A stretch of DNA of 63,851 nt, the filler included, from Platydemus manokwari (lineage: Eukaryota), in the NCBI GenBank assembly GCA_037951405.1. It is 6 parts of 6 records of this genome, joined end to end, with 100 filler letters (N's around TTAATTAATTAA, not from the genome) between each part and the next. Parts side by side here need not be neighbours in the genome. Positions count along the whole stretch, not along the records: positions 21,952 to 31,917 come from JBBMOY011183989.1; positions 32,018 to 41,873 come from JBBMOY011196432.1; positions 41,974 to 54,912 come from JBBMOY011895831.1; 3 more parts are not named here. One strand, written 5' to 3'. Position numbers and translations under genes: made by a program. Below are positions 22,095 to 54,912 of the stretch, piece after piece. The notes under the pieces were generated by a model. The model was not told the DNA's origin. It saw nothing but the letters and a program-made list of their open reading frames with translations, and did not search any database. Positions within the stretch are counted from its first letter, which is position 1; each line of letters begins with the position of its first letter.

Positions 22095-22164
22095 TTTACT
22101 TGAAAAACTACACTACTACTCCAATCAATTATTTAAACACTACGTGTTTCTTTATTTAATCACG

Positions 22165-22340
22165 TTGCTAGATAATTTCAAGATAAAGTGGATCGGAAGC
22201 TATTTCAGATCATAAAGAGTTATTTGAAGATTTTATTCGATAATTCCAAGATAAAATGAATTGGTATTTTATTTAAAATTTTCAAAGACTATCAAAATCT
22301 TTTATTAGAGAATTTCAAAGATAAAATAGATTGTTGTTAA
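22165..22340 (+). pseudogene. Tryptophan-repeat gene remnant (23-aa FIREFQDKVDW-type repeats), part of Polinton copy 1
   Basis: Reads R*FQDKVDR / ISDHKELFEDFIR*FQDKMNWYFI*NFQRLSKSFIREFQ-DKID, with a period of about 69 bp. Confidence 0.7.
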
Positions 22341-22379
22341 AAATAATTTGTCTTACGCAATTTTTAAATCCAAATAGCT

Positions 22380-23090
22380 TTTGTTAGGAAACGAAATAAA
22401 AAAATATTTAGTAATCATTTAAATATTCCTTCATCCTTTAGTGTGTTAATTGTTAGAAGTTTTAAAAATGTTATTAACCCCAGGATTTTTAGATTAAGAT
22501 AATTTAATAATATATTTAGAAATTGTTTATTAAGAAGAATATCAAATTTTATATCACGGATTTACAAATGGTTTATCAAAAGAAAGTATTATAAAAATAT
22601 TTGAAGATCAGGGTGGAATTCATAAAGATTTAACTACTAAAGAAATTTGTGAACTCTATGCCGAAATGTTTTCACCTCTAGAAAAGAGTAATATATCAAT
22701 AATCATGACTTTTAAATTTAATGAAATTATGAACCCATCGGATTTAAATAAAACTAAAATGAACTTAATAATTTTTGATGATTGCGTTACAGAGAAAAGC
22801 CAGGAAATAATGTCCGCTTATTATACAAGAGGAAGACATAATAGTTGTCATAGTGTTGACCTATCTCAAAGTTGTTTTGATTTACCTAAAAAGACAATAA
22901 TAAATAATTCAAATTTTATTATTTTATTTAAATTAAGTTAAAGTGATTAAGATTTAATGCATTGTGATTTTTTTTCCAAAACTATAGAAAAAGAAGAATT
23001 TATTTTTTTGTAAATAAGCAAAGGAATGAGAAATATAAATATATAGCTTTCGATAAAGATAAAGATATAATAATTGAAGATGTGTTTACA
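22380..23090 (+). pseudogene. Polinton/Maverick A32/FtsK-like packaging ATPase, decayed
   Basis: ORF 22666-22941 has Walker B LIIFDD, YYTRGRHN and LSQS.FDLPK..I.NNSNFIILFK. The Walker A region is degenerate (SFSVLIV...). Confidence 0.85.
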
Positions 23091-25395
23091 ATTTATGAAA
23101 ACCCCTGCTAAAGCAAATTGAAATAGTCACCGCGTTTGCGAATGTGTTTAGAATCTTTGAAGAAGAATACAAGACTTAAATTTATAAATTAAAAATGGGA
23201 AGTTTTGATATAAAAAATAATGAAATAATTAGAAAAATTCATTTCCTTGAAAAATATAATAAATACTGAAGCTGAAGAAATATCAAGAAAAACAACAATT
23301 AGCAATTGAAGCTGGAAATAAAAATTTAAAAGTTATTGACAATAAACAAGACATTGAATTAATGAAAAATATAATAGAAAATGACCCAAAACCCGGGTAT
23401 TTTGAACCAGAAATATTTAACCCAAATCATAAAGAATTAACCGCAAAATCAATTTTACTAACATTAGAAATTTAAAAAATTAATAACAAGGATTTTCAAA
23501 CTTTAAATATTTAGTCTGCAGCATTCTTGATTACAAAATCAGGTGATAAAAATTATTTAACATATACTAGAGATGAGACTAAATTTGAGATTACAGATAA
23601 TTTATTAAACATTATTTTGGGGAATAAAAATGCAAATGAAAGTGAAGAAGACATTCAAAGTTATTTTGGAATCTTGGAGAAAGCAAATGTAACAAAGATA
23701 TCTATTTATAAGAAGTTTTCATATATCAATTATGTAAAAGAAAAAACTTTATCAATTCAAAATAACCCTGATACATCAAGAATGATTAAAAATAAGCATA
23801 GCACATCAGGAACAGGATTATATAATAACCAGCAAAAATTGTCATCTTTGAATCCAATAGAATTATTTAAAAATTAAGGAAATTATTAGTTGCTAAACAA
23901 GGAGGACATAATAATGTTTTTAATTCAATAAATAGTATTTTAACAAATTTATATAAATTAGGATATATAGTATGTTAAATTTTAAATTATTAAATCAATC
24001 TAATTAAAGAATTGGTCAATTAAATTCATGGATTCCTGATAAAACTAATGAAGATCCAGATAAAGAAAATAAATAATTCAGAAGAAGAAAACCCTTTTAT
24101 AATTTAAAAACAAGTTCATAAGGTGATTTGCATTTAAACTCCTATTTGGAATTTTAGAGAGGTATAATGAGTCATTACTTAACATGAAGATTAAATTAAT
24201 CTTAAACAGAAATATAAATGATAAGAAAATATTTTATGGATAAAAAGGAGATGGACAATTAACCGTTAATTCATTAGAGTTTTGTATGCATGAATTAACT
24301 TTAACTTTAATTAATGAATATAAATGATTGTAAAGTATACAAACCGATAAACCAATTTATGTTCATTTTTAAATAGACTTTCAAATCAAATTAATTTTCC
24401 AGGGTCTTAAACTTTTTCATGGTCAGTAGCTTTATTAAACAATGGTTTCTAAGATCCTGAAATTGGCTTTACAAAAAATAATTAAAAATTCATTCAAAAT
24501 ATTGAGAATGATAAATATATGAGATCATTACAAGGTATAATAAATGGTAATAGCTACTACCCAATCAATAAAATTCAATTTGATATCACAACAAATAATC
24601 AGGATGCATGTTCAATGTTCAATATCAGATGGAAGTTATGTATCTAAAAAAGCATGAACGGAGAATATGATTCGATAAAATCGAATATTATTTATAGTTT
24701 TCCACCTATCAGTGTTCCTCTAAGGTATTTATGTATTAAATAAGTAAATCAAGTAATCTATTTTCGAATATGTTAGTGAAATCACCTTTAAAATAACAGA
24801 TCAAAATGAGTATTTAATAGACTTTAGTGAAAAAGAAATATCATTATGATTGCAACTCAAACAAGTTTAAGGTGAAATATTTTTCCCATCTTAAACAAGT
24901 ATTGATGGAAACTTGTTTGGTGATTAGTTAATAGTGAATCAACGATTTTTCAACCGATAATTTACTATGTAATTAAGTAAGATGCTATGAGTTAGAGATT
25001 GATGTTTCCACCAATGTCTGAAACTTCACAGATTAATAGGTTGCGTGTGAATGAGTTATATAAATATTAATAATAACAACAATAATATAATAACAAAATA
25101 CTTTATTATAATAAATATTATTAAATGTGTTATGCTGTAAGTTAGAAGGAGTAAGCTGTTGTGCCATGAAGATTTATCAGTAAATAACAACCACCGGAGG
25201 AAAATAAGTGGCGCCCCACTGCGACATATAAACTAAAGAAATAGGATTTTAGACTCAAACTCTGTTACGATTTTGTGAGGTTTAATGTTCACTGACAACA
25301 AATCTCTTTTCGAAGAATGATATCAGATATATGTGAGAACAGTTTAAATTTACCATATTGATTGAATCCAAGATATGTGAATTAATTGAATATCA

Positions 25396-25470
25396 GAAAT
25401 TAGCGTTGAAGCTGGAAATTGAGAATAGCGTTTGAGCTAAAAATTGAGAATAGCGCCTGAGCTGAAATTA
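25396..25470 (+). repeat. Three tandem 25-bp units (gagaatagcgtttgagctaaaaatt-like)
   Basis: Units start at 25396, 25421 and 25446. Confidence 0.85.
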
Positions 25471-28389
25471 ATCTCCATCGATTATCTGAGTGTAGCTAAT
25501 TACGTTTTCTCGAATTTGCTTCGTCGTTTTTGAGGCGAAAATACTGAATTTTACTTAAGTATTTATTTGGATTTGGAATGTGGGCGAATTATTAATTTTA
25601 TTTCTGATTTATGGATTCCCTTAGTAATATCCATTGTTGTCATGGCAATTTGCATTTAAATTTGAATTTCTATGACTATATTTCGGATTGCCATGGCAAC
25701 GTGGATTAATAATTTGTCGAAAAAATTTTATATATATTATTAATATCATTCCGCCCGCACGCCTACATTTTAATTAATGTGGGTTTTCGGTTTTATTTAT
25801 TATTATTATTATGTATTATCTATGATTATGTAATTTATAGTATTTTATAGGCTTGCAGCCTGCATGGGTATTATCCCGATAGTACATTATTTTTTTGAAT
25901 AAGATATCTGAGCAAAATATTTGAGTTTATACACTTAAATAACTCTGGTTATGAATGAATTTTGTGTCGAATTGAAATTCTCAATTTGTTGTTCATTCCG
26001 AATAAATGCTGCCTTTTTTTTGCTCCACACAACTTACTTGTTTATTTGGGGAGGCATTTGTGCAATGAAATCATTGGGGTAATGAGTAGAAATTCTTGCA
26101 AGATTTCTTAGTTTCATCTTTAGTATCCTTTAGATTAAAATTTGGTTTAGATATACAATAAAGGCACCAATTTAAAATTTTTTTAAAAACAAGAGTTTAT
26201 ATGGTTTAATGAATTTTTAACAATTAATTTTCGTCATAAAATTTCTCGAAGTTTTTATGCATTGATCACATTTGCAATTCAAAAGAGAGTGGAGTGCGCT
26301 GAATGTTCGGTTCTAGTTTGTTTCTTGGTACATTTTGACTGCTGGGCATCAATTTTATCTAGAGAAAAGTGTGATTTGGGTGTCTCTGCATATTGCTGGT
26401 ACTCAGGGCAAAGATAATAGAGCATCCAAACAGTTGATGAGTAATTAGAAGTTGCTGAGGTTGCATAATATCAGGGGTAGAGAGTGTTAGAATTTTTAAT
26501 TGAATTAAATTTTTTAAGATATAATTTTATCTGAAATTCGATTTTAAATAATATTATATTAATTTGTTTATATGATTGTATTTAAATGTATAATATGATG
26601 TTGTGACGGCATCAGATAAAGAATTTAAAGCTATGACAGGGTTAAAAAAAATCTAAATAAAATTGGCGATAAAAAGTTAGATAAAGGGCTTAGTAGCAAT
26701 TTAAAATGTTTGCGGTTTGTTTGGAACCAAAGTACACACACATATATATGTGGTTTCAGGGTCCATGCTGCAGTCTTTATAATATGAACATATTAAGTAA
26801 ATAAACGCGGAAAACCATTGAGAGAAGAAATACATTTGGCCCATATATAGGACTACATGAGCACTATATATATATTAATGCCAAAATTTATTATATCAGC
26901 GAAATAGATTCTCTACGATAAAATTTATTCTCTGCGCCAAATTTGGTATGAATATTTTAGGCATGACTATTTTAATGACTGATATTTTTCACAACAATAA
27001 TAAGTATTATGTTTAGACATAAAATCTGTCTAAGACTTTTATACATCAATACATTATAGATCTTCTAGATTATTGTATTTAATAAACATTTTAAAATTTT
27101 TTATAATTATCGAACCCCAACATTTGTATGTAGTATGCAGAAATAATGTTAAAAATAAAGAGACTATATTAATATTTATAAAAGAAAAGGATTTGGCTAA
27201 ACAATACTGTCAAACTCTCACTATGAAAATTATTAAAATAAAATTGCAATTTTTGTTAAAAAAATATAATATAAAAATGTGGGAATAAATATCACTGCAT
27301 ATATATTGATAAATGAAACTGCAAATCGATTATTAACAATAAAAAGTAGCAACCCTACGTGCTTGTATGAGATCTTATATTATTCAATTTCTCAGTGAAT
27401 TCTACAAATAAATACCGTAATGATTTGTTGAATCGATGCAGAAACATTCCGATTTAACCTGCAATGTTTCTACTACTATGTAAAATTCACTGCAGCTCTC
27501 TTTTTTGCGTTTTTTATAACCTTTTATTTTGATTTTTTTTAACAAACTAGGTAATATTTATTCAGTTTATATTTTCCTTTGTCTTCTCAAATTACTTGTT
27601 CTTCGTTTCTCTCTATTATTATTAATAATATTATTAATATTACTATTATTATTATCATCATCATTATTGCTATTGTTGTTCAATTTTCCATTATTTTTTA
27701 AGATATTTGAACTCATGAATTGTTATTGAACACCAAAATAAAGTAATAAACAGAACAACAAGAATTAAATTATTAAATTATTACCAAAATAATATTGTAA
27801 TTTAAATGTTTGTTTAAACGTTGACACTGATTGGGCTAGAATTCAAAAGATTTTGATTTTTGGATGTTTGAATTTTAAGAGAAAAAATTGTATTATCCAG
27901 GAACCTGTTGTTGCATTTTTGATAATTGGATATTGAGGCTGAATTGGTATTCCCTCAACAATTTATTGTGCGCTTTAATGATTACAGTCACCGCCCTATA
28001 TAGGCAGAGGTGAGTCATTCACAGATATTCTCTGTGAATTTAATTTAATGCTGTGCATATATGTTTAATGCACTATGATTTATCGTGGCAGTGAGAAATT
28101 CTCTGAAATTAATTCCACTAAGGCAGAGAGAATTTCTCTGCGAATTTAATGCACGGTAATTTATTTTTATATTATATATTACTATATATAATATTCCCGT
28201 CAGTCACAAAATTTACCCTGAATTTTCATAAAAATGTTTTTTCATGCAATAATAAAAAATTATATATTAATTCCATGCAATTAACGTTAAAAAATTGTCA
28301 TAAGCCCCAAAACCCAACCATTTTATTAATGGCGGCGTTTTGTGTGACAATTTATCAAGTTGTTCGGTACATCACAAATCAACCAAAAG

Positions 28390-28806
28390 GGTTACAGGAA
28401 CCCAGAAAATAACCCTAAAATGGTCGATCCAATAAGCGGATGTGCCGTCCGTCAACCAATCAGATTCGTTTTAATATTGTTCCATACTTGGGAGTTAAGA
28501 TTAGATAGGTACATACCTAAAAATGGTAGCAAACTCAAATATCTGTCAATAAAATAAGATATACGAGGAAAATTTCAAGCAGACCAATCCGTGAACTAAT
28601 TCAGCAAATGAAAAACGAAGCTTCGTGAGATCAAGCAGATAAACTCAATAGATTTTTCAAAGAAGTTGAATTCTATGAGTAACTGCCAATCTTGTTTATT
28701 TCGTAAGCTGCTTACCAATCTTAACTTTGTGTGATTTTCAGTCTTTTTGATTATTTTCTATTCTGTCTTTGACTTTCTGGAGTTGATCCCATCTTGTGTG
28801 ATAAAC
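28390..28806 (+). repeat. LTR-like dispersed repeat (about 410 bp); inverted homolog at 42452-42864
   Basis: Shared blocks acaggaacc..aaataacc.taaaatggt, ccaatcagattc, aattcagcaaatgaaaa, gttgaattc.atgagtaactg and gtgattttcag occur in the same order. Confidence 0.8.
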
Positions 28807-31800: not shown

Positions 31801-31917
31801 TATTTTACCTTTTTGATTTATGGCTATGCTTGTGATTTCTAATCGGACTCCAAACGATTGGTTGACAACTATTAGGTTGTGAGTGATTAGGTTGCGTTCG
31901 TATTGAAGTATAGATAT

Positions 31918-32017
31918 NNNNNNNNNNNNNNNNNNNNNNNNNNNNNNNNNNNNNNNNNNNNTTAATTAATTAANNNNNNNNNNNNNNNNNNNNNNNNNNN
32001 NNNNNNNNNNNNNNNNN
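31918..32017. other. Artificial contig spacer
   Basis: N44-TTAATTAATTAA-N44. Confidence 0.98.
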
Positions 32018-35000: not shown

Positions 35001-38000
35001 GATATGTAGGAGGAACATAGAGCCATCCCATCATTGGCTACCTATTAGAGTTTGCATATTCCTTAAACGAAAAGCCCTGAAGAAAATTATTATAATGTTA
35101 ATATGACGTTTTTTTTAATTTATTACCATTTTCGTCCATTTCTAAGAGAAAATGTACAGCAAATAGAATATTTTGTAAAGAATGGAAACAATGTTAAAAA
35201 ATTAGTCGAAATAGCTATGAAGAGTATCGGAATTGATAATGACATTTCAATGAAAAAGTTTATAAAAATGGTTCCACTATAATGACAAGCAATCACAAAT
35301 TTGTTTTTGTTAGAAATTATAATGTAATTTAAGATATTTTATATAAATTTTATAAATAGGCTCACATTTGATTTATTTGAGGGTATTTGATTAAAAGTAA
35401 AAATAAGTATTTATTTAACTGTCAAGACGTATTAAAGGCAATTTTTAATAATAATTTTAAAGATGTTCAGTTTTGAACATTTTCTTATGTTCATTAAATG
35501 CCTCTGTGGCAGAAAGAATTGATGAAGACTAAAAGGGAATTTCGAAAAGCAGATTGGGGAACTAAACAGTGAGAAAATCAAATAAGTAGTCTAAAATCAT
35601 AGAAAATGAAACATATGATTTAAATCGACCAAGGTAAACAAAACGTTAATATAACTCCCTTAAAAATTATTTAAATTCAGGATTTCAGATAAAACTGGAA
35701 AAAATAAAAAAAAATTTCCAGTTCCGACATTCAGGACAGTGGTTTTGCCAAAGATATGTTATGATAAAGCATATAGGATCAAGTCAAAGTCTTGAAAAAT
35801 AACATTTTAAAAACGGCTTCCAACACTACGACGGGATAGTTTTGATTTATCAGACTTTGATATAAAATGAACCTAAACTACAACATTTTTATTTGGGATT
35901 ACGTAGTAAAAAGAAAAAAGATTTATAGAGAAGTTTGTGAATCGATTAAACGTGGTATCGATAAATTATATTTATTCCAAGTAAAAGCTTTGGTGGATAA
36001 TATATTAACTGATGAAGACATTTTTAAGCTAAAGATATTATTAAAAATTAACGTGAAGAAATTTTGAAGATTAAAGAAAATAATATAAACGATTATATAT
36101 AAAATTCACAAAAGAATGTGTATTCTAATCATTTTCTTTTCTTAATATAGAAATTTCTTCGATCAATAATTTTCTTTCTAGATTATTAGATGAATTTGAC
36201 AACATGTTATTGCCTCTGTTCATTGTGATGGCTTATGAACAATTCAAAATTCAAATTGACAAAAAAGATGACAAATCAGATGGAAATAAATTTTTAATAT
36301 TTTAAAATTTGTTTGAAAATGGATGTATTGGAAATATATTATTTTGTTCTGGAGAAAAGATGACTTTTGGTTTTAAAATTAAAGACGAAGAAATTTTGGC
36401 ATCCAGCACTTCTTAATTTCTGTATTTTTCGTTGTCTTTTTTTATAATCTCTTTATCTTTTTACTTATATTTTAATAATATTTATGCTTGTAATAGTAAT
36501 CATAATCTACTTTTAGATGAAATTATTTATTTTCCATTTTAGGATTTTATTTAAGCAATTTTTGTTGATTCTAAGAACTGGTTTGGTGCTCAATAATATC
36601 TTAAATACTCCTTCTGGATTTTAGTTTTTTGTATGATTTACTTGGACATTTCATCGATTTTCCTTAGATATTTATTTAGAATATCATTATATTGTCCATG
36701 TAAAGATCGTCTTAGTCTCGCATTTGTTAATGACTTATCTTAAAAATCAAGAATAAAACTAAATCACATTTCAATTGCAGTCTCATTTAGCTCAACATAG
36801 ACTTCTTTTCTTAACTTATAAAGATTCTCTATTGAAATTCCAAGAAAATCTCATGGAATAAAATAAAAGTTTCGTATTGAGATCTAATTTATTCGGCCGA
36901 CAAATAGTGAGATTTAACTTCAGACATCAAAAGAAAATAAATAATGTTTCTTAAAACCAATTTATTGTTTATATTAACTGTTGCTGTTAAAGGAAATATC
37001 AATGGCAGCGTAAATAGATAAAATAAATAAATTGAAATAAATTGTCGTTTTGGTAAAGGGTTATTATATTTACTGGTCATATAGAGGGCTTCAATAGCTA
37101 GTATGAGGACGAAACTATTAGAAAATTAAACTGAATAAAGGTCAAAAATGGTAAGCCTGTAATATATGACCAACTGTGGCAACAAGGACTTATGATATCC
37201 CGTTGTCACCAGAATAACCTATGAGTTGAAATGACATTAACACGCTTGTAACTAAAATGATAACACGTTAAATTAAATAATTTATTTGAGAAGAACGAAA
37301 ATAAGTAACAATAAAAAAGAACAAAACAAATTTTGCTAAACTGTGTAGTACATTAAGCGAGCAGATAACTACTTGATTATTTGATTGATGACGATTGAAT
37401 AATCGGATTGTTTGAATAATTGTGGGAATAATTAGATTGGGTTAATGAATTCGATTACTGTGCGGATCATTTGACTCGGATTTGGGATGCATAACTGTTT
37501 TCTGGGGTTTAGCTGATTGTTGTTGTATATATTCGATTTTCACTGTCATTGAGATTTGAATATGTTGTTGTTGAACATATTTGGTTTTGAGGGTTTGTTC
37601 AATGATGATTTTGAGGATGATGTAGATGGTGCATCCTCAACAATTTTCCTTAAAGATTTATTTAAAATATCATTAGATATTTTATGTAACTATCGCGTTA
37701 GTATCGGAACAAAATCTAGTTTCCATTGTAGTCTCATTTAACTCAACGTGAACTTCTTTTTCTTAACTTACTTTCTATTAAATTTCCATGAAACAGTCAT
37801 TGAATATAATAAAAGTTAAAAGAAAAAACCAATAGCAGCATGGTTAATAAATTTAATTTCAGAGATATAAAATTGTATAATTAAATATTGAACCGATAAA
37901 ATAATAGGAGAAATATTGAATAAATTTAGATGATAATTATTAAGTAAAACAAATAAAAATAAAAAATAAATGATAAACATAAAAATATATGCATTTAAAA

Positions 38001-38852: not shown

Positions 38853-38893
<41 letters not shown>
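38853..38893 (+). repeat. (ATT)n microsatellite
   Basis: Seen directly. Confidence 0.9.
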
Positions 38894-38896
<3 letters not shown>

Positions 38897-38990
38897 ATAT
38901 TGATTTTTGGACAATTCAGTTGTATGTACTCAAATATTTTGTTCTACAAATTTTCTCTTTATTAGGCTAATAATGGTTTGATGCTTGTAA

Positions 38991-39629
38991 TTATGTCATT
39001 GGGATTCATATTTTGAAATTAAATTTCTAACACAGGCTATGAAAAATATTTGCAATAGCTAATAGACAGAAATAGAAATGACGTTAATCGATATTTAGAA
39101 GAAATAAAAATTTCTTCTCACTTTTTCATTCTGTTTTGTTAGAAATTATCAATTCTTCATTATCTTAGAATGTAAGTGGATTTCTGAATGGAACGATTGC
39201 ATTAACGAATAAATTAATAACAATGACGAAATTGTTGGTCATCTAAATAGTGACGAACAAATATATAAAAGATACCGTTCCATTGCTGGTAAATATTGAT
39301 GGTTATTATGTCATCGGGATGCACCTTTTGAAATTAAATTTCTAACATAAACTATCAATAATATTTGTAAGAGCTAATAGATAGATATAAATAGAAATGA
39401 CGTTAATCTGTATTTAGAAGAAAGAAATATTTCTACTCATTTTTTAACTCTGTTTTGTTAAAAATTATCAATGCTTCACAATGTTTTGATATTAGAATGC
39501 AATGGGATTTCTGAATGGAACGATTGCAATAACGAATGAATTAATAACAATGGCGAAACTGTTGGTCAGCTGAATAGTGATGAAAAAATATATAAAAGAT
39601 ACCGTTCCATTGCTGGTAAATATTGATTG
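38991..39629 (+). repeat. Tandem duplication of about 315 bp (38991-39300 and 39306-39629)
   Basis: Both units run ttatgtcat.gggat..ttttgaaattaaatttctaaca...ggatttctgaatggaacgattgca...gataccgttccattgctggtaaatattgat. Confidence 0.92.
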
Positions 39630-39954
39630 AATGCAGATAATGGTTGGTTATCAATATATGATATTTTATTCAGATTATTTCATAATAAATGGATTGGATT
39701 GAACTAGGAAGATCAATCATAACCGAAAAAAACAACAAAAGGAAATCTGGAAACCTACTATAGACGAGCAATAAAATGTGTCAAAATTTATTTTCGTGCT
39801 GCACATTTCATAGTAAAATTATCGAACATATTATCGATTAAATCAAAATTGTTCTCAAATATTGTTGACAAATTTCAGCGCATAACAATCAATGGTCATG
39901 GATTTTTGCTTTATGAATTTAATGAAAATATGTGTTTAGAAATATGAAACTATT

Positions 39955-41030
39955 ATTTTATTGACAGATGATTTATTTTTTTAATACTTGGAAATAAAGA
40001 TGTAAATAAAATAGAACTCGAAGATGTTGAAAATAATTTTCAAATATTAACTAAATCAGGGCTTACTGAAATCGGATTTAATGTTTTAAGACACCTAGTA
40101 AAATTGAGATAAATACTAGAAAAGAAGGATTACAATCTAATCAAATAATTATAATAATCACAATCACAGGTGAACTCCACGGAATTATTTTATTAGCAGT
40201 CAAGAAAGAAGAACATAACAATGTTTATAACTCAATAAATGACATTTTATGATTTTAGGGAAACTATATAGGTTAGGATATATAAAGAAAGAAAAGAAAA
40301 AATGAAATCCTCAAATAATATTTTTCTTTAAATTTTTAGCTAACATTTTGAACAAAATGATCGAAACAATTAAAACTTAATATATGCACTTGCAAAAAAA
40401 GGTTTGTATATTATTAATCAATTAGCAACAACAGCATCTAATTTAAATAAATCCAATCATATTGCTTTTGAATCTCAACAAACTTCAAATCCTGTAGATA
40501 TTTGTGATAATTTCTTAATATATGAAATTGAAATTGAATTAAAGAAAGTAAATAATGTCGATCACGATAAAACTTTAGAAAATAACTTGTTCTAATTTTA
40601 TTTAACTCTATAAGATTAACATTGGAAACTCATGAAAATGAAAATATTGAAAGTATTGATGAAGTATCTAGATCATTAAACTTGATATTATTAGATAATA
40701 CAGAAATATTTTCACTAAAACAATTATTTGTATTTTATTGAAAATCATAAAGATTGTTATATCTAATGACGTTCGAAATAAAAAATAAATCAGAAAATAT
40801 TTTAGTGAAAAAAAGATAAATGAAAATTAACTATTAAATCTTTAGAATTTTGTATATTAGAATTAATTTTGAATCCAAAGAATTAATTAAGTTCATTGGA
40901 CCCATTAGGTACTGATAAACCTACTCTGGTAAATCATTTAACTTGATATTTTATAATTTATTAGGATTACAAAATAATCAATACATAACTGTCATTTTAT
41001 TGGGATTCAAAGATAAAAATAAATGCACAA
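39955..41030 (+). mobile_element. Polinton/Maverick remnant, copy 2: gene X C-terminal half and putative capsid N-terminus
   Basis: LTDDLFFLILGNKD..LEDVENNFQIL and LLAVKKEEHNNVYNSIN match gene X. From ATG 40357, LYIINQLATTASNLN..FESQQTSNPVDICDNFLIYEIEIELKK..LENNLF matches 54393 onward. The 3' boundary is approximate. Confidence 0.78.
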
Positions 41031-41034
41031 AATG

Positions 41035-41790
41035 TAACTCAAGGAAAGGAAGAAAATTGTAATCAATTCTTCGAAAAAATCGAGAAACCAATAGACAATA
41101 TTCTCCGGCATAAATTAACCCAGCAGTTTTTAATGATGTTTTTGGCTCAACACTTAATTGAGGACGTGGAAATAAAAAAAAGAGATGAAAAAGCTAGACA
41201 TAAAAACAGTCCATCAGGCAAAAGACATCATTCATAAGATGGATGACATCCAAAAAGAAATCGAGGGAAAAGAATTACCTTCTGTAATTCATGTGAAAGT
41301 GTCATATGCAGATATAACAAAGAATGCTAAGCAATGGAATGCTCCAATTGGAAGAAGCCAACATTCAAGTCGTCAGCATGAAACGAAAAGGCAGTCGCAA
41401 AATTGACGACGTCGTAATTCGTGGAAAGAAGCTCGACGAAGTTGGGCATGCGGTCAACTCAGACACATCAGAGCTCCATGGAACAATGTGAAGTGCCTTG
41501 ACTGCGGTAGAAATGGCCATTTTCAGTATCAATGCAGATTATACAAACAAGCCAGTACTAAATACTCCAGAGGAAATGATAACATTGCACCCCCACGACG
41601 ATACTTTGAGAACTTTCAGAACCGAGACAGACGGGATTCACAATCGAAATGATCGTTTTATTCAAATTCAGGAGAGCAGAGGCAGTTCATTGCCATGAAT
41701 GACTATGATAAAGCGATAGAAAGGGACATAGAAAATCGATCAGACGAAACTGCGTTAAAAGACGAGGCTCTTGCGTATAGGGAGACGTAA
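41035..41790 (+). mobile_element. Ty3/Gypsy-type gag remnant with two CCHC zinc knuckles
   Basis: One frame with internal stops: QGKEENCNQFFEKIEK...MKKLDIKTV..VSYADI..*..SWACGQLRHIRAPW-NNVK-CLDCGRNGHFQYQC. The second knuckle is an intact CX2CX4HX4C. Confidence 0.78.
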
Positions 41791-41873
41791 AGAGCTCATA
41801 AATTTGGTTTAAGTAGGTATTTAACTGACAATGAATGTATGAATGAGAATGTATGTGAAATGAATGTATGTGT

Positions 41874-41973
41874 NNNNNNNNNNNNNNNNNNNNNNNNNNN
41901 NNNNNNNNNNNNNNNNNTTAATTAATTAANNNNNNNNNNNNNNNNNNNNNNNNNNNNNNNNNNNNNNNNNNNN
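41874..41973. other. Artificial contig spacer
   Basis: N44-TTAATTAATTAA-N44. Confidence 0.98.
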
Positions 41974-42451
41974 TGCAGTTTTGAAGTGAATAAAATATTA
42001 AAAGAATGTTACTCCACTCATTTGTTACAAAAAAATCCTCAGAAATAAATGTTTACCTTCAACAGTTTACTTCAAATCAAATGATAAATTCAAAATATAT
42101 ATATTCTCTGAAATATATATTGGTCAGCAATTTCAATTATGTCGTCCGCGGGATAATTATCGATTCCAAGTTTTTCTCGAAATGTATTTGTGTGATTATC
42201 GGACTGTGCACTTTCGAGTTGATATTATAGTATTGTAGTGATTTTGTGGCGAATGGTTGACTGTAAAATTGCAAATTCTGATCGATTATTTATACTCAAT
42301 CATTTTGTTGGTGGCCGTCTCAATTAGTGCTTGTACTTAATACTTTCATATCTTTATTAATCATGTTTGGTAACAATTTGAAATAAAACCTGAAAATCAT
42401 ATTAAAACTTCAATACCACAAGCTCAGTTATGAACAGATATAATTAAATTC

Positions 42452-42864
42452 TTATCCGCACCCGAAAATCAGACAAAGAATATAAAACAACCAAGAAGAT
42501 TGTTTGCTGAAAATCACGTAAAAGTCAAGAACAAAAGACAGGTTAACGACCAAACAAGACTGACAGTTACTCATGGAATTCAACCTGTTTTATAGAGATA
42601 TTGATTGTGTCTACTCGATGTCACGGATCTAAGCTTTTCATTTGCTGAATTCGTTTGTACATAGATATGCTACTAATTTTTCTTGCATCTCTTGTGGTAT
42701 TGGCAAATATATGAGTTTTCTGCCATCTGTTGATACGTGCCTGCTAATTTTTAACTTCTAAATACGGATTAATATTATAAAGAATCTGATTGGCTGTTGA
42801 TATGTGCGTTTATCGAATCTGTGTGTCAACCATTTTAAGGTTATTTCCCTGGTTCCTGTGAACA
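42452..42864 (-). repeat. LTR-like dispersed repeat, homolog of 28390-28806
   Basis: The reverse complement begins TGTTCACAGGAACC and aligns along the whole length. Confidence 0.8.
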
Positions 42865-44868
42865 CAAATATCTTTATTAATTATTTGGTTTTACAATTAC
42901 ATATTTTTATAAATTTATTTTATTTATCTTTTGTCAACGTTTGTCTTCTCTCTCTTCATTTACATTACTTCAAATAACAATTAAATAATATTAATAATCA
43001 TAAAAATTTATATCAGATATCAATTCAATAAATAAATGAAATAAGTAATCATAATCAATTAAATCAGATTTCAATTCAATAACCTCAATATTTAAATAAT
43101 TAATAATATTAAATCAAATACCATTTCACAATAAAGATATTAAATATTTTTGTGGTTTGGGGTTTTTTGTTAGCGCTCGTTAGTTATATTAGCTGATTAC
43201 GCCTTAACTCTTCACTGACTCTAAGGGACTTCAATAACGAATATTAAGACCACGCTATTGGAATAGTTGCTTAATGAATCTAAAGGTCTCGTTAAGGCAA
43301 TTAATACCCTAACCAAATTTAAATTAAGTATAGTGAAGAAATTGAGTCTGACTCTGACTATAGATGTCGTTGAGGCCTAAAGTTAAATCAATTATTATTT
43401 AGACTATGACTTGTGCTATATAGCTCAATGGTTAATTAGATTATGATATCAACTTAGTTATTACCAAAGCTCAATGCTCTATATTCCAATAAAAAAATCG
43501 AGACAAAATAATTATTATAAAATAATATATTTAGAAGCAAAATGTAACAATAGTTGAACTGAATAACAAAAAAAATTAGTTCAATAGTTAGTGTGTTGCC
43601 TAAGAAAGTAGCCCAAACGGACGGAGACTCGGGTAATGAATAGGAAAGTGATTTTGGCAGATTAAAATAATAATGTTACGATGATGTTGAGTGTGGTTTC
43701 AATTAAATAATACTAGGGATGATTGCGTTGAGCACAATTGTTAAATATGAATAATTTTGATATATGAATTGTAAATATAAATGGTGTCAACGGATGGTTA
43801 AACTTTTAAATAGTTAAAATGAAAATGACAATTACTTCGCTCAAAGTGATTCAAAAAATATCCACAGCTCCTTTTATTTCTGCTTCCTAACGAATAGTAC
43901 TCCAAATGTAGTTATTTTGAATCAATGGTTTGTTCCGTTCTCTAGTGAAGTAATGGTTTCCCGTTGATTTTCGCCTGTGATGATTTTTCTATGCAGTATT
44001 CCTGATTCGCATTTTTTACTGATCGCAGTGTTACCGTTATCGTTATTTATGTAGTGGGTGCCTTGGCTTGATTATAGTTTGGTATTTGTACCTTACAGCT
44101 CAAACTACTTTTAGCTGTTACGCGGCCCCTAATTATTTATTTTTTAACCATTTCGCGGCCTCAACGTTTTGGCCTTTTTAATCTTATATATTTTATTATA
44201 TTGTATTATTATTTTAGCTTATTAATTTATTATTCTATAATTTTGTTTTACCATATTATTATTTTATTAAGTTATATTATTATTTTTTTTATCTTATCTT
44301 TATATCTGCCAAAATTCTTATCCATCCGCTTTTTACATAAAAATATAAAAATATAAAAATATAAAAATATAAAAACAACACAGATATGATTACTATAAAA
44401 ATTGTCTTCAGACATTAATATAAAAATGGAAACCTATCACAACAATTGTCATGAAATAAAATTATTTCATATAATAAATTGTCTTTAGAACACATAACTA
44501 TTTCATATAAATTGTCAATTGTCTTATAAACACATAACGCATTGTTTATTGTTAACACAGTAATCATATTGTTTTTTGCATGAGCCGTTCTTTTGAATCT
44601 GCTGAATTTGCTTTCATCCATAGCCAAGAGTATGCGATGCATGGATATTACAGTAAAAGAGCACATGTGTGTTATTTATCGACATTTCATATAAACTGGA
44701 ATGGTAAGGCCAAGATGATAAACTGGGTGAGTACTGGTAAGGGTTGGGTGGGTGTTTCCAATAAGAATGCTACTTGGTAGTTAAAATCAATAAAATCAAT
44801 ATTGCTTCATTATAGTCAAGGCACTAGAATATTGTTGAGTGAGATGATATTCTGTACTTTAAACATTT

Positions 44869-44995
44869 CCATGCCTACACAGCCATACAGGCATAGCAAC
44901 CAACCAATCACAATGTCAATTAGAAAAAGGGACATACACACCTATAAGAATTGACCAATCCAACTCGTGCAAAAACTAAAAAGATAAGAACATGG
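44869..44995 (+). repeat. Dispersed repeat shared with 51616-51775
   Basis: catacaggcatag..c.ccaatca....caatt.gaaaaa.ggacata..acac..attga.caatcc.act occurs in both places. Confidence 0.7.
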
Positions 44996-47900: not shown

Positions 47901-49939
47901 CATCTATTTTCATGTTCTCTTTGGCATCTTTGATTAACCTTGACCTTTATTTATGGTATCTTGAGACCGCATTCTCATCACTGTCAATGCCCAGGCGATG
48001 ATTTATTGCAATTAATTAAGTTCCTCAATTTACCTTTCCTCTTATCTATTAAATATTTATTATATCCTTTTTATGTTGTGAGGTTTTTATTTATCAGAAA
48101 CATTTTATTAAAGTTAAAATTAAAGTGATTCTATCAAAGTACCTCAGTGATTTGAAAGGTGAAAAATTGATGGATAATTAAGTCTGAAAGAAAAGGTGTA
48201 ATAGCAATGAATTTATCGTAGAGCAGCAAGTGTTGAATGAATAGACAGAACAACAATGCGTTTCATTATTACTGAGCTCAAACTATGGCAATAGTAAATA
48301 ACCAACAATCCTAATGATACCAAGTTGCACTTAAGAATCAAAACTATCAAAACATCAGAATATGTAGCTGGTATAGAAAAAGAAGTTCGAAGAAGATTAA
48401 TTATATGTTTGTATCTACTGAACTTCAACTGGATTCCTGTTCTTATATCCGATTTCTTTCTTATCATGGCTAGTCCTGAGAATAACTCACACTTTTGATA
48501 GTAATTATTTTAGATTTGTGTTTTTGCGCAAGGTTATTAGTAATATTTAGCTATTTTCCATTAAATTTTGATTCCAATTTTCCATGCTTCGATTCATTCA
48601 GAGAGCATAGGTGGATGCTTTTATAATCAAAGAATCAATTCAGTTTAATAGTTGATTTCAACCGAATTTTAAATTCTGGAAATTTATTGTTTATGGTTCG
48701 ACTGTCTCTGCATTTCGGTTTATTTTTGTCTAGCTGGTCGAAGCCTAATTCCAAAGTTAAGCTTATTTAGTAATCGTTACTGGATTTCTGGATACAGACG
48801 CTTGTCCATTTAGCTGATGATACATTCCAGATCATTTATTTATTCACAATATTGGTACCAAAGTTCATTTCTGATTACGTAAAAGTCGAATTACTAACTC
48901 GATAGTCTTAATTCAAGTTTAATTCCAAATAATATTTCACAGCGACATTGTGCTTTTGATCATTTGAAAGTACTCTCAAGCGATATAGATTTGATCAAAA
49001 TAATTCTAAATTTGCGAAAAATTCAAAACTACTAGTAAAATATTTGAATTTTATTTCGGAATCGTAATTGAAAATTATCATTGAGTATATCGATTATAGG
49101 TATTTAATTGCAGTCTTAATAATTATATTTCTGATATCTATAAACTCGGTGGGGCATAATGAACCAGTGATAATAAAATTGAAAACCACCCACATGATTT
49201 GAAAAACGTACATCCTTAATTTTTATTGCATTGTAAATTTATTATTGGCATGCACTTATTGTATTTGTTAATTAAGCTTTCGATTTTTCAGTGTTTATTA
49301 TTTATTTGTCATGTCCAAATCTATATTTAACTAATGACATAAAATCTACTTTTTAAGACTTTTCCGATTCATCCTGGATTTCGCAATTGAACGCAAGTAA
49401 AAATAAATTTGATATTTTATTATCCATAAAAAATATGTAATCTTAAATCGCCAAACAACAACATTTAATCCAATAAATTCTGCACTTTTATAATTTCCTG
49501 AGATAGAGTTTATGCTAAATCATTTATTTATAACAAGTAAAGAGTATTTGAAAAAATTACTTTATATTAGTTTTTCATTTTTAAGAGATATATAAATTTT
49601 GTCATAAGCTTCAAGTATTTTGTAAACTTATTCGTAAAATTATACACCAATATTTTCTTGTGGCTTTCGATGAGAAAATGTTTATAATAAATAATAGACA
49701 AGGTAAAATTTTTATTATTTTTCAATTTTTAACATTTTAATTTAAAATCGTAATCATTTTAAATAATTTTCAATCATGTAATTACTATTGAGATGTGATC
49801 AACCATTTCAATTTCGTAATTTAAAAAGACTAAGCTCATTGAAACATTTATTATTTATGTTCAAAATACATTTTAATAGGACAGAATTAACTAATACTTT
49901 TAACAAATATCGCAAATTAAGCTGTATTGATATAATTCA

Positions 49940-50254
49940 TTAGCCTGATTTGAACAGAAGAATTGCCACTTGTCCCAAATAAAAATAAATAAAATGTTTG
50001 GTTTCGTGAGTGACATAACTAAATCATAAAATCAAAATCATTATACAAATTCATAGAAATTACCTTCCGAAATTTCTGCCTACAATACAATGCCAAGTAG
50101 GGTTGAATGTTTTATCAAATTCTTTTTTAACATACGCAGCAATATCTTTTTCGATGTTAAATTTCTCCATGGCTTGCGTTGCATAGTTGATGGCGGCTTC
50201 TTGCATTTCATCATTCATATCTGCATTCTTGATAACTGCTTGACGTTCCGACAT
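49940..50254 (-). CDS. DYNLL: Dynein light chain LC8-type, 89 aa; exons 50254-50064 and 50018-49940
   Basis: [13 protein letters not shown]...[29 protein letters not shown]|[25 protein letters not shown]-stop, with a 45-bp GT-AG intron. Confidence 0.97.
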
Positions 50255-51918
50255 TGATGATTACTGACTACTTGTACCAATGTTAATCCTTTTATTGAAA
50301 GAATTCCAAATAGTTTAGTAGAATAGTTACAAAAATATCGATTCGTTTTGACCAGCGTCATTTGTAATTTAATATCTAATGTGCTTAGCTTAACTAAAAC
50401 TATTCTACTAAACATTTACATTTTATTTCATGGTTTACAGCGAATCTCAACAATGAATGTGACTACATTTATCGAAACAAAACACTACGCGATGTTAGAT
50501 AGCTATCTTTATACAACTTAATATTTGAACTTTGAAATAATCTTTTGATAACATTAAGAAAGTATGAGTTGTTTTTCGTAGAAACTAAAAAGCAAGGTGC
50601 AATTATTTTCAATTTGAAAAAATTAATATCTCAATTATAAAATTTTAATTAAAAATTTGAAGGACAACTCATACCTTGATCTGTATAACATATTATAATT
50701 TTAATAAAATTGAATGAACATAGTTTAACATGCGCTTATTTTGTAAGCATTTAATGATTAATTTTATTTTTTAGTTTATTTAATTTTTAAATATTTAGTT
50801 TTGTAAAATATACTACTTGATCTTTAGACAAATTTCGAAATTTTTTGAGAAAAATTATGTCTACAATTTGAGTAAAAACATTAATGTGAAATAAAAATTC
50901 ATAAAAATTATTATTTAATTTCAAAATGTTATTTTACTTGAAAAGAATATTATTTGAATAAATAATTCAAAAACACAAGCAAAATAAAATCTTGTGTGCA
51001 GAAAGTTAAATAATTAAACTAAATTGCATTTTATCAAATTAATTCAGAGACTTATCGTTTGTTGAATAAAGGAAAACTTTTTACACAACTCTTACTTCAA
51101 TGAGAATCCTTCTGATTGCTTTATATCTAATTTCATCATTAATCGGTTTCCAATGAGCCTTCAGGTATCTTCAATCGGAACTATGATGAAGGTTTCAGAA
51201 TCGTACACTATATTAATATCCTTATTACACGTTATCCAATGTCATTTCCATCCATTTGCATTCTGAAACACATTCGAACTATCTGATAACTTTCTTTATC
51301 AATTCACATCAACATCACTTTTATATTTATTATTTACCTTGATTAAAAATATCGGACGTCATTTAATAATTTTAGTAAAAAGATAACTCGTTTGCATCAA
51401 TATTTTATTCTAATTCAAAATTCAAAATTACACTCTTTATTTTTTTTAATATTTAAACAAATCTTATTTTTTATCTAACCATTTTTATTTCAAAATGATA
51501 TTTGTTGAAAATTACTAAATTTTCAAGTGCATAAACGTGTTGGGTGAGATGAAATTCTGCAAAAAGAAAAACGAAATTGCACCTTGGAACCCTTGTTTTG
51601 GCACTTCAAACATTTGCATACCTGCACATTCATACAGGCATAGAAATCACCCAATCATAGTGAAGTTAGATGGTGAACTACAATTGGAAAAACGGACATA
51701 GCTACACAACAACACACACATGGGGATTGATCAATCCCACTGATGTAAAAGCCTAAAAACCCAATAGGAACACAGCTTCAGATTTGATCTTTAGTTATTA
51801 CATATAGATTTCGTTTCTTTTCAATTGCCCAAATTTTAATAATAAATTTTATAATGATAATAATAATTTTATTTATAGCACCAAAGTCATGTTAAAAACA
51901 ACAAATATTTATATAATT

Positions 51919-52820
51919 CTAAAAACTTGATTTAATCAACTCATTACTATAAAATCTTCCCAATATTTTTTCTCCTTTTAAATCTATCAACCTTTAAGTA
52001 ACGGGTTTGGTTTTACAAACCTCTTTAATAATAAATATTTCTTTTGAATATTTTGTGAATATCCTTTCTCAAATTTAATTTTATATTTGAAAATTCTCAC
52101 TCTCTAAAACTTATAATTATGGTTTAGCATTTAAATTATTATTAAAATTGTTCCATTCCCAATTTTTTCTTTAATTATTTCAGGGCTTTTACTTGCTTCA
52201 ATAATACTCACTCCAATATTTGAATGAATTCTATTAATATATTTATTAACAACATTTTTCAATAAATTATTATTTCATTTTTGATTTCCCTATGCCGTAA
52301 AATGTTTCCACGTAATATATTTCAGAGTTCTAATAAATTTTTCTGCAAAAACAGCTTTACCCTCATTTTCAGTATGATATACAATGATTTTATTTTCAGC
52401 ACAAAAATTAAAAAAAAATTACTTCTAATTCCAAATTCTTTATCAAACCATATATATATATAGAAATTATTTTGCCTTTTTCAAAGTAACTTTCAAAGTT
52501 TCTTGTTTTTTATCCCTCAAGAGAATACACCAACCATATCTCGTGTATAAATCAATAACGACCAAAATATATATAAACCCTTCAGTAGATTTTTTGGGAA
52601 TCACAACTAAATATGCACTATGAGTATTGTCTTTAGAAAATATTTTAACTTTTAAAAATTTCTTAACTTTTTTATGTTCATGATGTAATTCTTGAACTAA
52701 TGGATCTTCATCTCGTAAATGAAAATCAACTTTAGTTTTATCAATGTAATCTGGATTTTCATGTATTTTCTTAATTGCTAAATCTTTGGCTGAACGAGGA
52801 CGTAGATCGGCCCTGTCCAA
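51919..52820 (-). pseudogene. Polinton-type retroviral-like (rve) integrase, decayed
   Basis: LVQELHHEHKK.., GFIYILVVIDLYTRYGW..LRDKK, IWFDKEFG, VYHTENEGKAVFAEKFIRTLK, YINRIHSNIG, RIFKYKIKFEKGY..YSKEIFII and IDLKGEKILGRFYSNEL; frameshifted. Confidence 0.9.
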
Positions 52821-53070
52821 GCATAATTTTCCCTTTCATAATAATTTTAATTAAAAATCTTTCTAATTTTTCTCTGAATGTTGGATTAGGAACATTATCC
52901 ATTTGATGTATCATTCTAACATCAGCAATATGTATATTTTGTAAATCTTTTGATTTTTTTTGGAGTTGGTAGTATACCTAATTTTCCTCTTTCATTATAA
53001 TTATTAATAATCTCATTATAATTTTCTAAATGTTCTTAAAGATTTATTTCTGACAAATTAAAATATATTA
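52810..53070 (-). pseudogene. PLA2X-like (adintovirus phospholipase-A2-domain) gene remnant upstream of the integrase
   Basis: SKDLQNIHIADVRMIHQMDNVPNPTFREKLERFLIKIIMKGKIMLGQG resembles the C-terminal helices of Maverick PLA2X proteins. The HD catalytic segment appears deleted. Confidence 0.55.
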
Positions 53071-53502
53071 CACTATATCTTAAGCAATCATTAGAGGTAA
53101 ATTAACTCTTCATGCCCACCAACGTTTAGTCTCTGAACAATCTCCATATTCCTATCATAACGAACGTAGGAAACTTGCTGCGGGTTGGCAATGTATTCTT
53201 CAGTATTTTTACTTGAAATCAGTCATTACCTGAGATCTTTCAAAAGACTTCTCAATTGAAGTAGTAGATGAAGACTTTAGGAGTACGCCGCAATTTAAAG
53301 GTGTTGCATTGTTGAATGAAGTTCAACAAAGGTTTGGCGTTGCTCAACAATACTAGCATCGATTTTGAATCAACACTCTATTGAAATTCGTTCAATGAAA
53401 TTATGGAAGGGAAGGAACTTTCTTCAGCTTCGTTCAAATTTAAATTTAAGATTGAAACTATGAGACAGAAGAGAAGGGATGGGGAGGCAAGGAACCTCGT
53501 TC

Positions 53503-54350
53503 AACTTCGTTCGAAGGATTTCATCAACTTCGTTCAAATTTATAAATTAAAAATTGATGGTTATAACAAAAATAAAAGAATAGAAGAATTCAAAAAGATT
53601 GTTTCCTATAAAACTAAATTAAATACTGAAGCTGAATAAAAACTACATTCTAAAATTTTGTTGCCCAATTTTATAAACCACTATTAGCACCAGTTGTACA
53701 AAATCAAGAAAAACAACACTTAGCAATGGAGAAGCTGTAAAAATCATTAAAAATAATTTAGAAAACATTAGAAATAATAGAAATGAATAACAAGGATTTT
53801 AAAATTTTAAAAATTAATTCTACAAAATTCTTGATTACAAAATTCGATGGTAAACCTTATATTACTTATACTGGAGATGGAAGCGATTTTGAGATCACTG
53901 ATGGTTTATTAAACATTATTTTGGGGGATAAAGATGCAAATAAAACTATAAAAGACATTCAATCCAATTTTAATATTTTGGAAAAAACAAATATTACAAA
54001 GGTAGCCAAATTTAAGAAATTTGTATATATCAAATATTTAAACAAAATTCTATCAATGCCACAGGCTGGAAAGGAATTCCCAATGTCGCCGCAGATTGAA
54101 AATAAAAAGGAGGGGATGGGATTAAATCCAATAGTATTATTTTATGAATTAAGAATATTATTAGCAGCTAAAAAAGGAGGAAATAATAATGTTTCTAATT
54201 CAATAAATAGTATTTTAATAAAATTATATAAACTAGGGTATTTAACTAAAGATAGAAAAGACAAAATAATTAAAAAGTATTTTCATTGAAGTATTTTCAA
54301 TCAAATTTAAGGAAGTTGAACGAAGTTGATGAAATCCTTCGAACGAAGTT
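53503..54350. repeat. Perfect 35-bp inverted repeat pair (53503-53537 and 54316-54350)
   Basis: aacttcgttcgaaggatttcatcaacttcgttcaa and its exact reverse complement. Confidence 0.95.
53783..54289 (+). pseudogene. Polinton conserved hypothetical gene X (open 168-aa C-terminal part)
   Basis: FEITDGLLNIILG...NPIVLFYELRILLAAKKGGNNNVSNSINSILIKLYKLGYL; three homologous copies in the window. The LxxLLAxKxxGN tail is typical of a conserved Maverick ORF. Confidence 0.7.
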
Positions 54351-54392
54351 CCCCTCCTTTCCTTCCCTTCCGTTAAAATTTAGGCTGAAAAA

Positions 54393-54912
54393 ATGGTCGC
54401 AAAATTAGATGCAAATTATTATAAATTTAAACATGAAACTAAAAAAGAAGATTTATATATTATTAACTCATCATCATCTACAGCAACGAATTTAGTTCAA
54501 GCCTCTGATACTAATTTCGAATCTAAACAAAACTTCAAATCCTCTAGATATTTGCAATAGTTTCTTAATATATGAATTTGGGATTGAATTAAAAAAGATA
54601 AAACATACTGCTGGTGTAGAAGAAAATAATTTCTTTTCTAATTTATTTAATTCTGAGATTAACATTAGAACACATTAATTTGAAAATATTGAAAGTGTTG
54701 GAGAAATTTTTAGTATGTTAAATTTTAAATTATTAAATCAACCTGATGAAAGAACTGGAGAGTTGACAACATGGATTCTAGATAAAACTAAATAAGATCC
54801 AGATAAAAATAATAAGGGATTGAAAAGAAGCATAGCCTTTTATAATTTAAAAAGCAAGTATACACGACGATTTTCATTAAAATAAATATTTGGATTTTTA
54901 GAAAACTATAAT
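54393..54912 (+). pseudogene. Putative Polinton major capsid (double jelly-roll) N-terminal part, truncated by the gap
   Basis: ENNFFSNLF..FENIESVGEIFSML..W..D..NKG..R..FSLK*IFGFLENY, a motif pattern seen in Maverick capsid proteins. Confidence 0.62.

Follow-up and report, generated by a model that had tools for sequence, protein, structure and literature searches.

The window (the whole stretch of DNA analysed: 63,851 nt, six contigs joined by N-linkers) contains three homologous blocks that are, in all probability, dead and internally deleted fragments of one Maverick/Polinton (Polintoviricetes) family, highly repetitive within a flatworm genome, with an integrase likely produced as the tail end of a PLA2 virion protein. 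They are located in contigs 3, 4 and 5 (copies 1, 2 and 3, respectively) and align with each other at 75.0% identity over 765 nt (copy 1 vs copy 3), 75.3% over 780 nt (copy 2 vs copy 3), and 73.5% over 351 nt and 68.9% over 360 nt (copy 1 vs copy 2), with local scores of 141-547 as compared to a control maximum of 64 (30 pairs of unrelated window segments). With dead fragments this similar and scores far beyond the controls, the proposal of the initial annotation that a single family recurs in three of the six contigs is borne out, as are the independent decay of the copies and (by virtue of the rve integrase, the A32 ATPase and the double jelly-roll capsid) their Polinton/Maverick identity. 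We regard the gene identities, the decay, the deletions, the abundance and the flatworm host as established, and an old age of the family as plausible. The following features were recognised (L and P numbers denote relatives):

22165..22345, plus strand: copy 1, short Trp/Phe helical-repeat gene piece, interrupted by stop codons and changes of frame; phrog_3532 (unknown function), E 3e-10 for 22166-22351
22374..23099, plus strand: copy 1, A32/FtsK-type packaging ATPase, dead; 72% to P0001, E 6e-78
23195..23969, plus strand: copy 1, gene X (an orphan gene conserved in Polintons), broken, final codons deleted; profile E 1e-6
23970..24602, plus strand: copy 1, double jelly-roll major capsid, middle part, both ends deleted; PF21738, E 1.2e-4 for 24103-24450
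24654..24867, plus strand: copy 1, putative penton (minor capsid) C-terminal piece, joined by deletion to the capsid piece; L059 penton match, E 5e-6
39916..40330, plus strand: copy 2, gene X, C-terminal part, heavily decayed; from copy alignment and relatives
40374..40997, plus strand: copy 2, major capsid, N-terminal ~60% with an internal gap; L059 capsid residues 27-131 and 190-290
51922..52835, minus strand: copy 3, rve integrase, dead; PF00665, E 5e-4; relatives' profile, E 4e-35
52774..52977, minus strand: copy 3, parvovirus-type PLA2 domain, C-terminal half; profile positions 49-98 of 103, E 9e-11
53000..53400, no strand: copy 3, unassigned repetitive stretch at the place expected for the ATPase and the N-half of PLA2; summed depth high in run X1
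53419..53542, plus strand: copy 3, repeat module (short and dispersed) ahead of gene X, with three copies of 15-24 nt; forms the left arm of an inverted repeat
53550..54289, plus strand: copy 3, gene X, 175 codons open (53762-54289); 36% to L055 over 172 columns
54313..54382, minus strand: copy 3, the same repeat module in inverted orientation, lying between gene X and the capsid; from repeat comparison
54390..54912, plus strand: copy 3, major capsid, N-terminal ~45%, truncated by the contig end; 21 relatives at E<=0.001

The ATPase, the capsid, the integrase and the 'Trp-repeat' piece (22165..22345) lie where they had been placed before, and the earlier block limits are generally right, save that copy 1 extends to the penton piece ending at 24867 and that the capsid of copy 2 ends at ~40940-40997 instead of 40680. 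As the ATPase and the integrase occur in different copies, it is only through gene X and the capsid that they are linked within the window. The whole gene set recurs together in intact relatives (e.g. L059). The stretch at 53000..53400 had no match to relatives, Pfam or PHROGs.

Within the virion module, the A32 ATPase of copy 1 is confirmed by its similarity to P0001 (itself PF04665), of which residues 1-29 and 38-251 are covered and 30-37 are not, so that the Walker A stretch is missing; its main frame carries 4 stops, and the nearest metagenomic ATPases share 59-72% identity with it. Viral-contig scans with the window ATPase and with the capsid alignment returned no match. The double jelly-roll capsid is likewise supported, since PF21738 was found on the copy 1 piece (which also matches P0134 over residues 176-353 out of 448 at E 5e-21) and on 6/6 full-length capsid relatives scanned, and the modelled relative P0128 (pLDDT 76) matches the iridovirus, mavirus, PBCV-1 and Sputnik capsids (E 1e-14 to 1e-11). 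The end of copy 1, overlooked in the initial annotation, consists of two pieces (residues 182-214 and 226-257 of 257 of an L059 gene) and is probably, judging by sequence similarity, a penton C-terminus; we take the L059 gene to be the penton from its motif and position, and a Pfam search with it gave no hit. Gene X, singled out earlier as a gene of this family, does form homologous blocks in all three copies; it is conserved across Polintons and hence not private to the family. Neither a word search (107 candidates) nor Pfam or the PDB sequences yielded a hit for it, and the ESM Atlas gave only unnamed clusters; the model of its relative L055 (pLDDT 64, pTM 0.36) had no Foldseek match at E<=0.001, its best Z (7.3) being to common helical arrangements. 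Gene X may correspond to PZ or GasderminX.

The rve integrase of copy 3 holds up on PF00665 (a hit below the curated cut-off) together with the relatives' profile; it has 7 stops in 231 codons and has lost the first two catalytic Asp. The end of its frame coincides with the ends of the chromodomain-less L054/L059 proteins, which indicates an integrase without a C-terminal chromodomain, and for this reason we file the elements as Polintons: of the earlier adintovirus label the Polinton genes stand, and the label itself does not under a definition that requires the chromodomain (PMC11071296). The 'PLA2X-like gene and integrase' described before are both present, with the PLA2 reduced to its C-terminal half; an intact catalytic half was sought in copy 3 by profile and not found, and profiles of pX-bearing genes had no match in the window, where only this half remains. 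The view of the two as separate genes is weakened, as a Met-less integrase frame overlaps the PLA2, as in the polyprotein relatives. The overlap spans ~65 nt in another frame (+1 register, without an A-run), and there is no Met in the 122 open codons (52467-52835) that overlap the PLA2 end. Against a fusion, the linker between PLA2 and integrase measures ~40 codons as compared to 12-16 in fused relatives, and the PLA2 half scores 40-44 bits against the fused relatives and up to 49 bits against others. In the integrase tree the window copy groups with the fused L054/L055/L059 (support 98/95), on a long branch (2.25) for which long-branch joining is a risk.

Among the relatives, L054, L055 and L059 encode a zinc finger, PLA2 and integrase in one reading frame, and two others have the integrase fused to a protease. 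The sister clade has an integrase without AUG ahead of the first catalytic Asp, downstream of an A7-A10 run, with junctions that in 13 otherwise intact loci are -1 (9/13), in frame (2/13) or +1 (2/13); L001/L089/L137 were left out of the recoded count, having been rejected as a -1 case (their junction is in frame and the break lies further on). No stimulatory RNA structure was detected 3' of the slip sites (7 tested, z -1.1 to +0.7). PLA2 genes unjoined to the integrase occur in L106 and L136. On balance we lean towards the view that in the window family PLA2 and integrase formed one polyprotein, which would have carried the integrase into the particle, and from which the element's Gly-Gly protease would have freed it. 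More tentatively, and with somewhat less than even confidence, we propose that in a wide branch of animal Polintons, to which this flatworm family would belong, the integrase may lack a gene of its own and be produced as a virion-protein tail, by in-frame fusion with either PLA2 or the maturation protease or by A-run slippage from PLA2. These sequences suggest a Gag-Pol-like packaging of integrase, of which our literature searches found no report.

The polyprotein has to be weighed against two other ways of expressing the same genes. That PLA2X and integrase were separate genes, as in insect adintoviruses, and that the integrase start codon simply decayed, is a doubtful reading that deserves consideration: copy 3 is heavily mutated, its PLA2 frame stops ~22 codons after the last conserved helix, and in L136 the two genes are separate and the integrase has a Met of its own. 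Against this stand the fusion to PLA2 in the three nearest integrases and the integrase frame itself, which is open over ~43 codons ahead of the conserved start region and overlaps the end of PLA2. That the window family was recoded, with A-run slippage linking PLA2 and integrase across different frames as predicted for the sister clade, appears decidedly unlikely; the Met-less overlap of both frames and the 11/13 relatives' junctions out of frame at the A-run would fit, whereas the window overlap has no A-run and is in the +1 register, and its integrase falls outside the slippage clade.

The make-up of the family raises two further alternatives. The differing neighbours upstream of gene X had been taken to imply rearrangement, deletion or subfamilies; deletion explains them, and subfamilies are not needed. 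As PLA2-integrase commonly lies head to head with the ATPase in relatives (L001, L069, L074, L086), the arrangement in copy 3 can be read as one deletion, and in L059 gene X comes after the ATPase, which is also the arrangement of copy 1. The presence of two or more subfamilies that differ in gene order, or of a non-autonomous derivative that spread already deleted, is unlikely, even if the copies are only 69-75% alike, gene order varies among L054, L059 and L062, and many joints occur across the copy 3 stretch in run X1; copies 2 and 3 have the same gene X-capsid junction (absent from copy 1), and no deletion shared between copies was seen. Least probable of all is a polinton-like virus without pPolB, or contaminant contigs in place of host insertions. 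That no pPolB, protease or terminal inverted repeats are visible, as reported earlier, is confirmed: neither the pPolB nor the Ulp1/adenain-type cysteine protease profile (the protease being present in more distant relatives) matched any frame of the window, whose copies are fragments, and a search with published terminal motifs (PMC8097293) for inverted repeats with AG/AGT ends and a 6-bp target-site duplication found no pair of termini in the window (one ACTACT at 22112). The inverted repeat around copy 3 gene X (59 nt, 83%) was rejected as a terminal repeat, being internal and built of the short dispersed module. Group 2 Polintons, as outlined in 10.64898/2026.06.19.733378, often replace pPolB with helicases, and the closest relatives are metagenomic fragments on short contigs without a polymerase. 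On the other hand, polymerase-like ORFs occur in more distant relatives (L001, L069, L134 and L138), and the copies show stop codons, broken frames and flanks of host type, among them a dynein light chain gene with an intron on the contig of copy 3, whose flank is matched by a run X1 contig with zero differences over 897 nt.

The high abundance claimed before is supported by the same run, of which 9,601 contig records map to 50500-54912, with a summed depth of 10-89 in 5 flank bins vs 1,089-71,628 in the remaining 25; this depth is added up across contigs and does not give a copy number, and the run may be the window's own sample. An adenylate cyclase on contig 1, which holds no copy, has flatworms as its best named matches (57-66%) and two unnamed proteins at 89% and 77%; the host flatworm is probably a planarian.

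Returning to the favoured polyprotein, the parent element (its order read from relatives) would have had integrase-PLA2 arranged head to head with an opposite-strand series of ATPase, gene X, capsid and penton, and would, going by established Polinton biology, have been copied via a protein-primed polymerase, packaged by the A32 ATPase into the jelly-roll capsid and inserted by the rve integrase. After insertion the copies would have decayed separately, copy 3 losing the PLA2 N-half and the ATPase in a single event, and copy 1 two internal blocks. If the proposal is true, integrase would be loaded and rationed in the particle in a Gag-Pol-like manner; integrase-virion protein fusions in several separate branches, together with a slip site amenable to reporter assays, would make testable how an incoming Polinton particle brings integrase to its DNA, and annotation would change, since a first-AUG start loses a catalytic residue.

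The suggestion of a possibly uncharacterised lineage is weakened, as Polintons are known in planarians (Schmidtea, PMC8532177) and a Maverick expansion is reported for Dugesia (10.64898/2025.12.11.693146); these elements share phylum, AT-rich genome and high abundance with the window family, and in both papers we found them treated as a repeat class, with no gene-level description. The copies themselves add little, decayed planarian Polintons being expected; what they do show is that an abundant flatworm repeat class carries the full capsid module. Vertebrate Polintons, too, are mostly decayed (96% of copies eroded; PMC8097293). The virion module of group 2/Alpha-type animal Mavericks/Polintons, as outlined in PMC8502044 and 10.64898/2026.06.19.733378, has the rve integrase, A32 ATPase, double jelly-roll capsid, penton and parvovirus-type PLA2 in common with the window family, which differs in its chromodomain-less integrase and in a PLA2 that abuts the integrase (fused in the nearest relatives). 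In contrast to the described PLA2X, with a pX-like segment at the PLA2 C-terminus, the nearest relatives encode this segment as a gene of its own (L054 and L059 gave Adeno_PX hits). The metagenomic L054, L055, L059 and P0001-P0005 provide the nearest ATPases, gene X, capsid and integrase; L054, L055 and L059 have intact frames and a gene order unlike that of the window, and no contig reaches the polymerase, so that neither the window nor these nearest contigs show a pPolB or the OTU-PolB that marks the Alpha class of adintoviruses. In retroviral/LTR Gag-Pol, integrase is the tail of a structural protein, attached in frame or via a slip and released by the protease. Polintons differ in being dsDNA jelly-roll viruses, in the partner (PLA2 or protease, not capsid) and in slip sites at which no stimulatory RNA structure was detected, and the likeness, which we offer as an analogy only, lies in the proposed expression of integrase as a tail.

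Self-comparison of the window (six contigs with N-linkers between them; ~27% G+C) recovered the shared blocks claimed by the initial annotation in contigs 3, 4 and 5 (copies 1, 2 and 3, respectively), which are pairwise 69-75% identical (scores 141-547 vs a maximum of 64 in 30 control pairs), and profiles built from relatives matched the window only at these three sites, bar two faint matches (E 0.02-0.04) whose source clusters are likely non-coding frames. Of 115 candidates, 88 proved related to the copy 1 ATPase, from which the Walker A stretch is absent (the closest, 72% identical, is a Pox_A32 protein), and the Trp-repeat gene of the same copy matches phrog_3532. The double jelly-roll fold of the capsid, whose absence would have counted against the initial annotation, is upheld by PF21738 (in 6 of 6 full-length capsid relatives scanned, and directly in the copy 1 piece at E 1.2e-4, under the cut-off) and by the structure model of a relative capsid (P0128), which matches the iridovirus, mavirus, PBCV-1 and Sputnik capsids; the copy 3 piece retrieved 21 relatives. 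Gene X is conserved among relatives and recurs in L136, an element of insect type (hhalign probability 99; direct BLASTP 26%); it yielded no family match and no fold match (PDB sequences; Foldseek comparison of a relative's structure model). A packaging ATPase ORF of 528 codons in one relative (L062:1560-3143), twice the usual length, seems to have acquired by fusion a tail resembling gene X. Taken together, the three copies are a real feature, correctly identified at the outset and ordinary as an element.

In copy 1 the end of gene X runs straight into mid-capsid sequence (~470 nt found in copy 3 are missing), and the capsid piece directly into the penton end, in which the copy terminates; these are two internal deletions. 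Given that PLA2-integrase and the ATPase are arranged head to head in the relatives L001, L069, L074 and L086, and that in L059 the ATPase precedes gene X, a single loss spanning the N-terminal half of PLA2 and the ATPase would account for the copy 3 layout. Some 400 nt of this copy, between the PLA2 piece and gene X, matched neither relatives nor Pfam nor PHROGs. A short dispersed repeat (53419-53542 and 54313-54382) forms a 59-nt inverted repeat bracketing its gene X; as in copy 3, L059 (880, 4458, 5793) and L061 (197, 844, 2516) carry G+C-richer short dispersed repeats of their own, in L059 in frame within three genes.

The PLA2X-like gene first annotated in copy 3 is present, reduced to positions 49-98 of the 103 of the profile. 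It overlaps by ~65 nt the frame of the integrase (PF00665; 7 stops in 231 codons; first two catalytic Asp lost in alignments), which has 122 open codons without a Met. Among the 145 loci compared, ten ORFs carry both domains (Pfam-confirmed in L054, L055, L059 and L134). In the integrase tree (27 rows; loci with <130 aligned residues left out) they occupy three or more branches, and the window integrase groups with L054/L055/L059 at 98/95; its branch is long, and the tree carries a warning of long-branch joins. The loci concerned, with those discussed below, are:

ORFs with PLA2 and rve: L054, L055, L059, L072, L080, L110-L112 (one element), L114, L134
Otherwise unbroken junctions at -1: L069, L070, L074, L079, L084, L085, L086, L096, L109

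The integrase is instead fused in frame to a maturation protease, with the chromodomain present, in L082 (197-1624) and L139 (7485-8957; the only one with Pfam Peptidase_C5 support), and has its own Met in L002, L135, L136 and L141-L143. The long Polinton contigs L138 and L139 are filed in a bacterial metagenome-assembled genome and are probably misbinned eukaryotic or viral DNA.

An integrase made as a fusion, shown in the relatives, is for the window copy only likely: we lean towards an in-frame PLA2-integrase fusion there, consider two separate genes a less probable arrangement, and regard recoding as improbable, since the overlap is in the +1 register and lacks an A-run (in a copy full of breaks).

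Recoding fares better in the sister clade. The 27 PLA2-integrase junctions classified (three being one element) comprise 14 at -1, 8 at +1 and 5 in frame; where both ORFs are otherwise unbroken (n=12, four loci running off the contig), 9 are at -1, 2 in frame and 1 at +1 (L076, a locus with Ns that shares 99.6% identity with L074). A strict -1 rule is at odds with L138 (from a different collection, added later), which is intact and at +1 with an A7 run, giving 9 at -1, 2 in frame (L072, L080) and 2 at +1 among 13. The nine -1 loci (65-92% identical; junctions 23-32 nt) have an in-register slip heptamer inside an A7-A10 run, and no AUG upstream of the integrase's first catalytic Asp. Random decay is an unlikely source of these frames, and recoding at the A-run (candidate programmed slippage) is the best reading of the sequences, because slip heptamers occur in 63 of 1,398 control windows, truly split genes are few (2 of 91 gene matches across 12 junction loci, L076 left out; 4 more are second matches beside a full-length ORF), the other coding DNA of these loci (59.7 kb) has eight runs of 7 and none longer, and L072 and L080 have a junction peptide of this kind encoded in frame. 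Several points weigh against recoding: homopolymer assembly errors are a possible source of the offsets, as the absence of other long runs leaves no control; many junction loci may derive from few related samples; splicing or non-AUG starts may offer another route to the integrase; and no stimulatory RNA structure was found downstream of the 7 slip sites tested. The PLA2 domain of these proteins is bordered by Gly-Gly or Gly-x-Gly motifs, which would fit a putative release by protease.

The only sequencing run listed, X1 (23% of words), possibly stems from the same sample as the window; one of its contigs is identical to the copy 3 flank across 897 nt. Over 50500-54912, to which 9,601 X1 records align, 5 flank bins have summed depths of 10-89 vs 1,089-71,628 for the other 25, which shows a highly repetitive family and is no copy number. 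Depth starts to rise ~600 nt ahead of the integrase end, in a repeat that recurs at 44856-44910. Other sequences in the window are:

1370-4819 (contig 1): intronless host adenylate cyclase, type 9-like, 1,149 aa; best named matches trematodes and cestodes (57-66%), two further proteins at 89% and 77%; this makes the host a flatworm, probably a planarian judging by the A+T content and how far it stands from those parasites
15754-15891, 36261-36396, 63730-63851: dispersed repeat family across contigs
28394-28780, 42461-42859: another such family
38990-39627: 327-nt tandem duplication
41000-41800: decayed Gag-like stretch directly after copy 2 (weak zinc-knuckle match, E 0.002), likely an LTR element piece
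50030-50260, minus strand: dynein light chain gene of the host, 1.7 kb away from copy 3 on the same contig and interrupted by what seems a short intron
51538-51772, 44833-44910: separate high-copy repeat adjoining the integrase end; its boundary at 51538 is common to at least 128 X1 contigs, and it may represent either the end of a Polinton or a different element

Our literature search, with most subscription papers and Repbase outside its scope, found no PLA2-integrase fusion or frameshift, which is weak evidence of absence; the accessible parts of PMC3671162, PMC4642659, PMC5803895, PMC11161782, PMC11131425, PMC6431247 and PMC12567637 mention none. In Schmidtea, Polintons are targeted by piRNAs (PMC8532177), a Maverick expansion is reported in Dugesia (10.64898/2025.12.11.693146), flatworm insertions are recorded (10.1101/2025.04.19.649669), vertebrate copies are mostly eroded (PMC8097293) and group 2 Polintons commonly carry a phospholipase (10.64898/2026.06.19.733378). 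Within the portions consulted, PLA2X is described as a separate gene, with no flatworm named (Starrett 2021, PMC8502044), and -1 shifts are predicted for penton and hexon-protease rather than for integrase (Buck 2024, PMC11071296).
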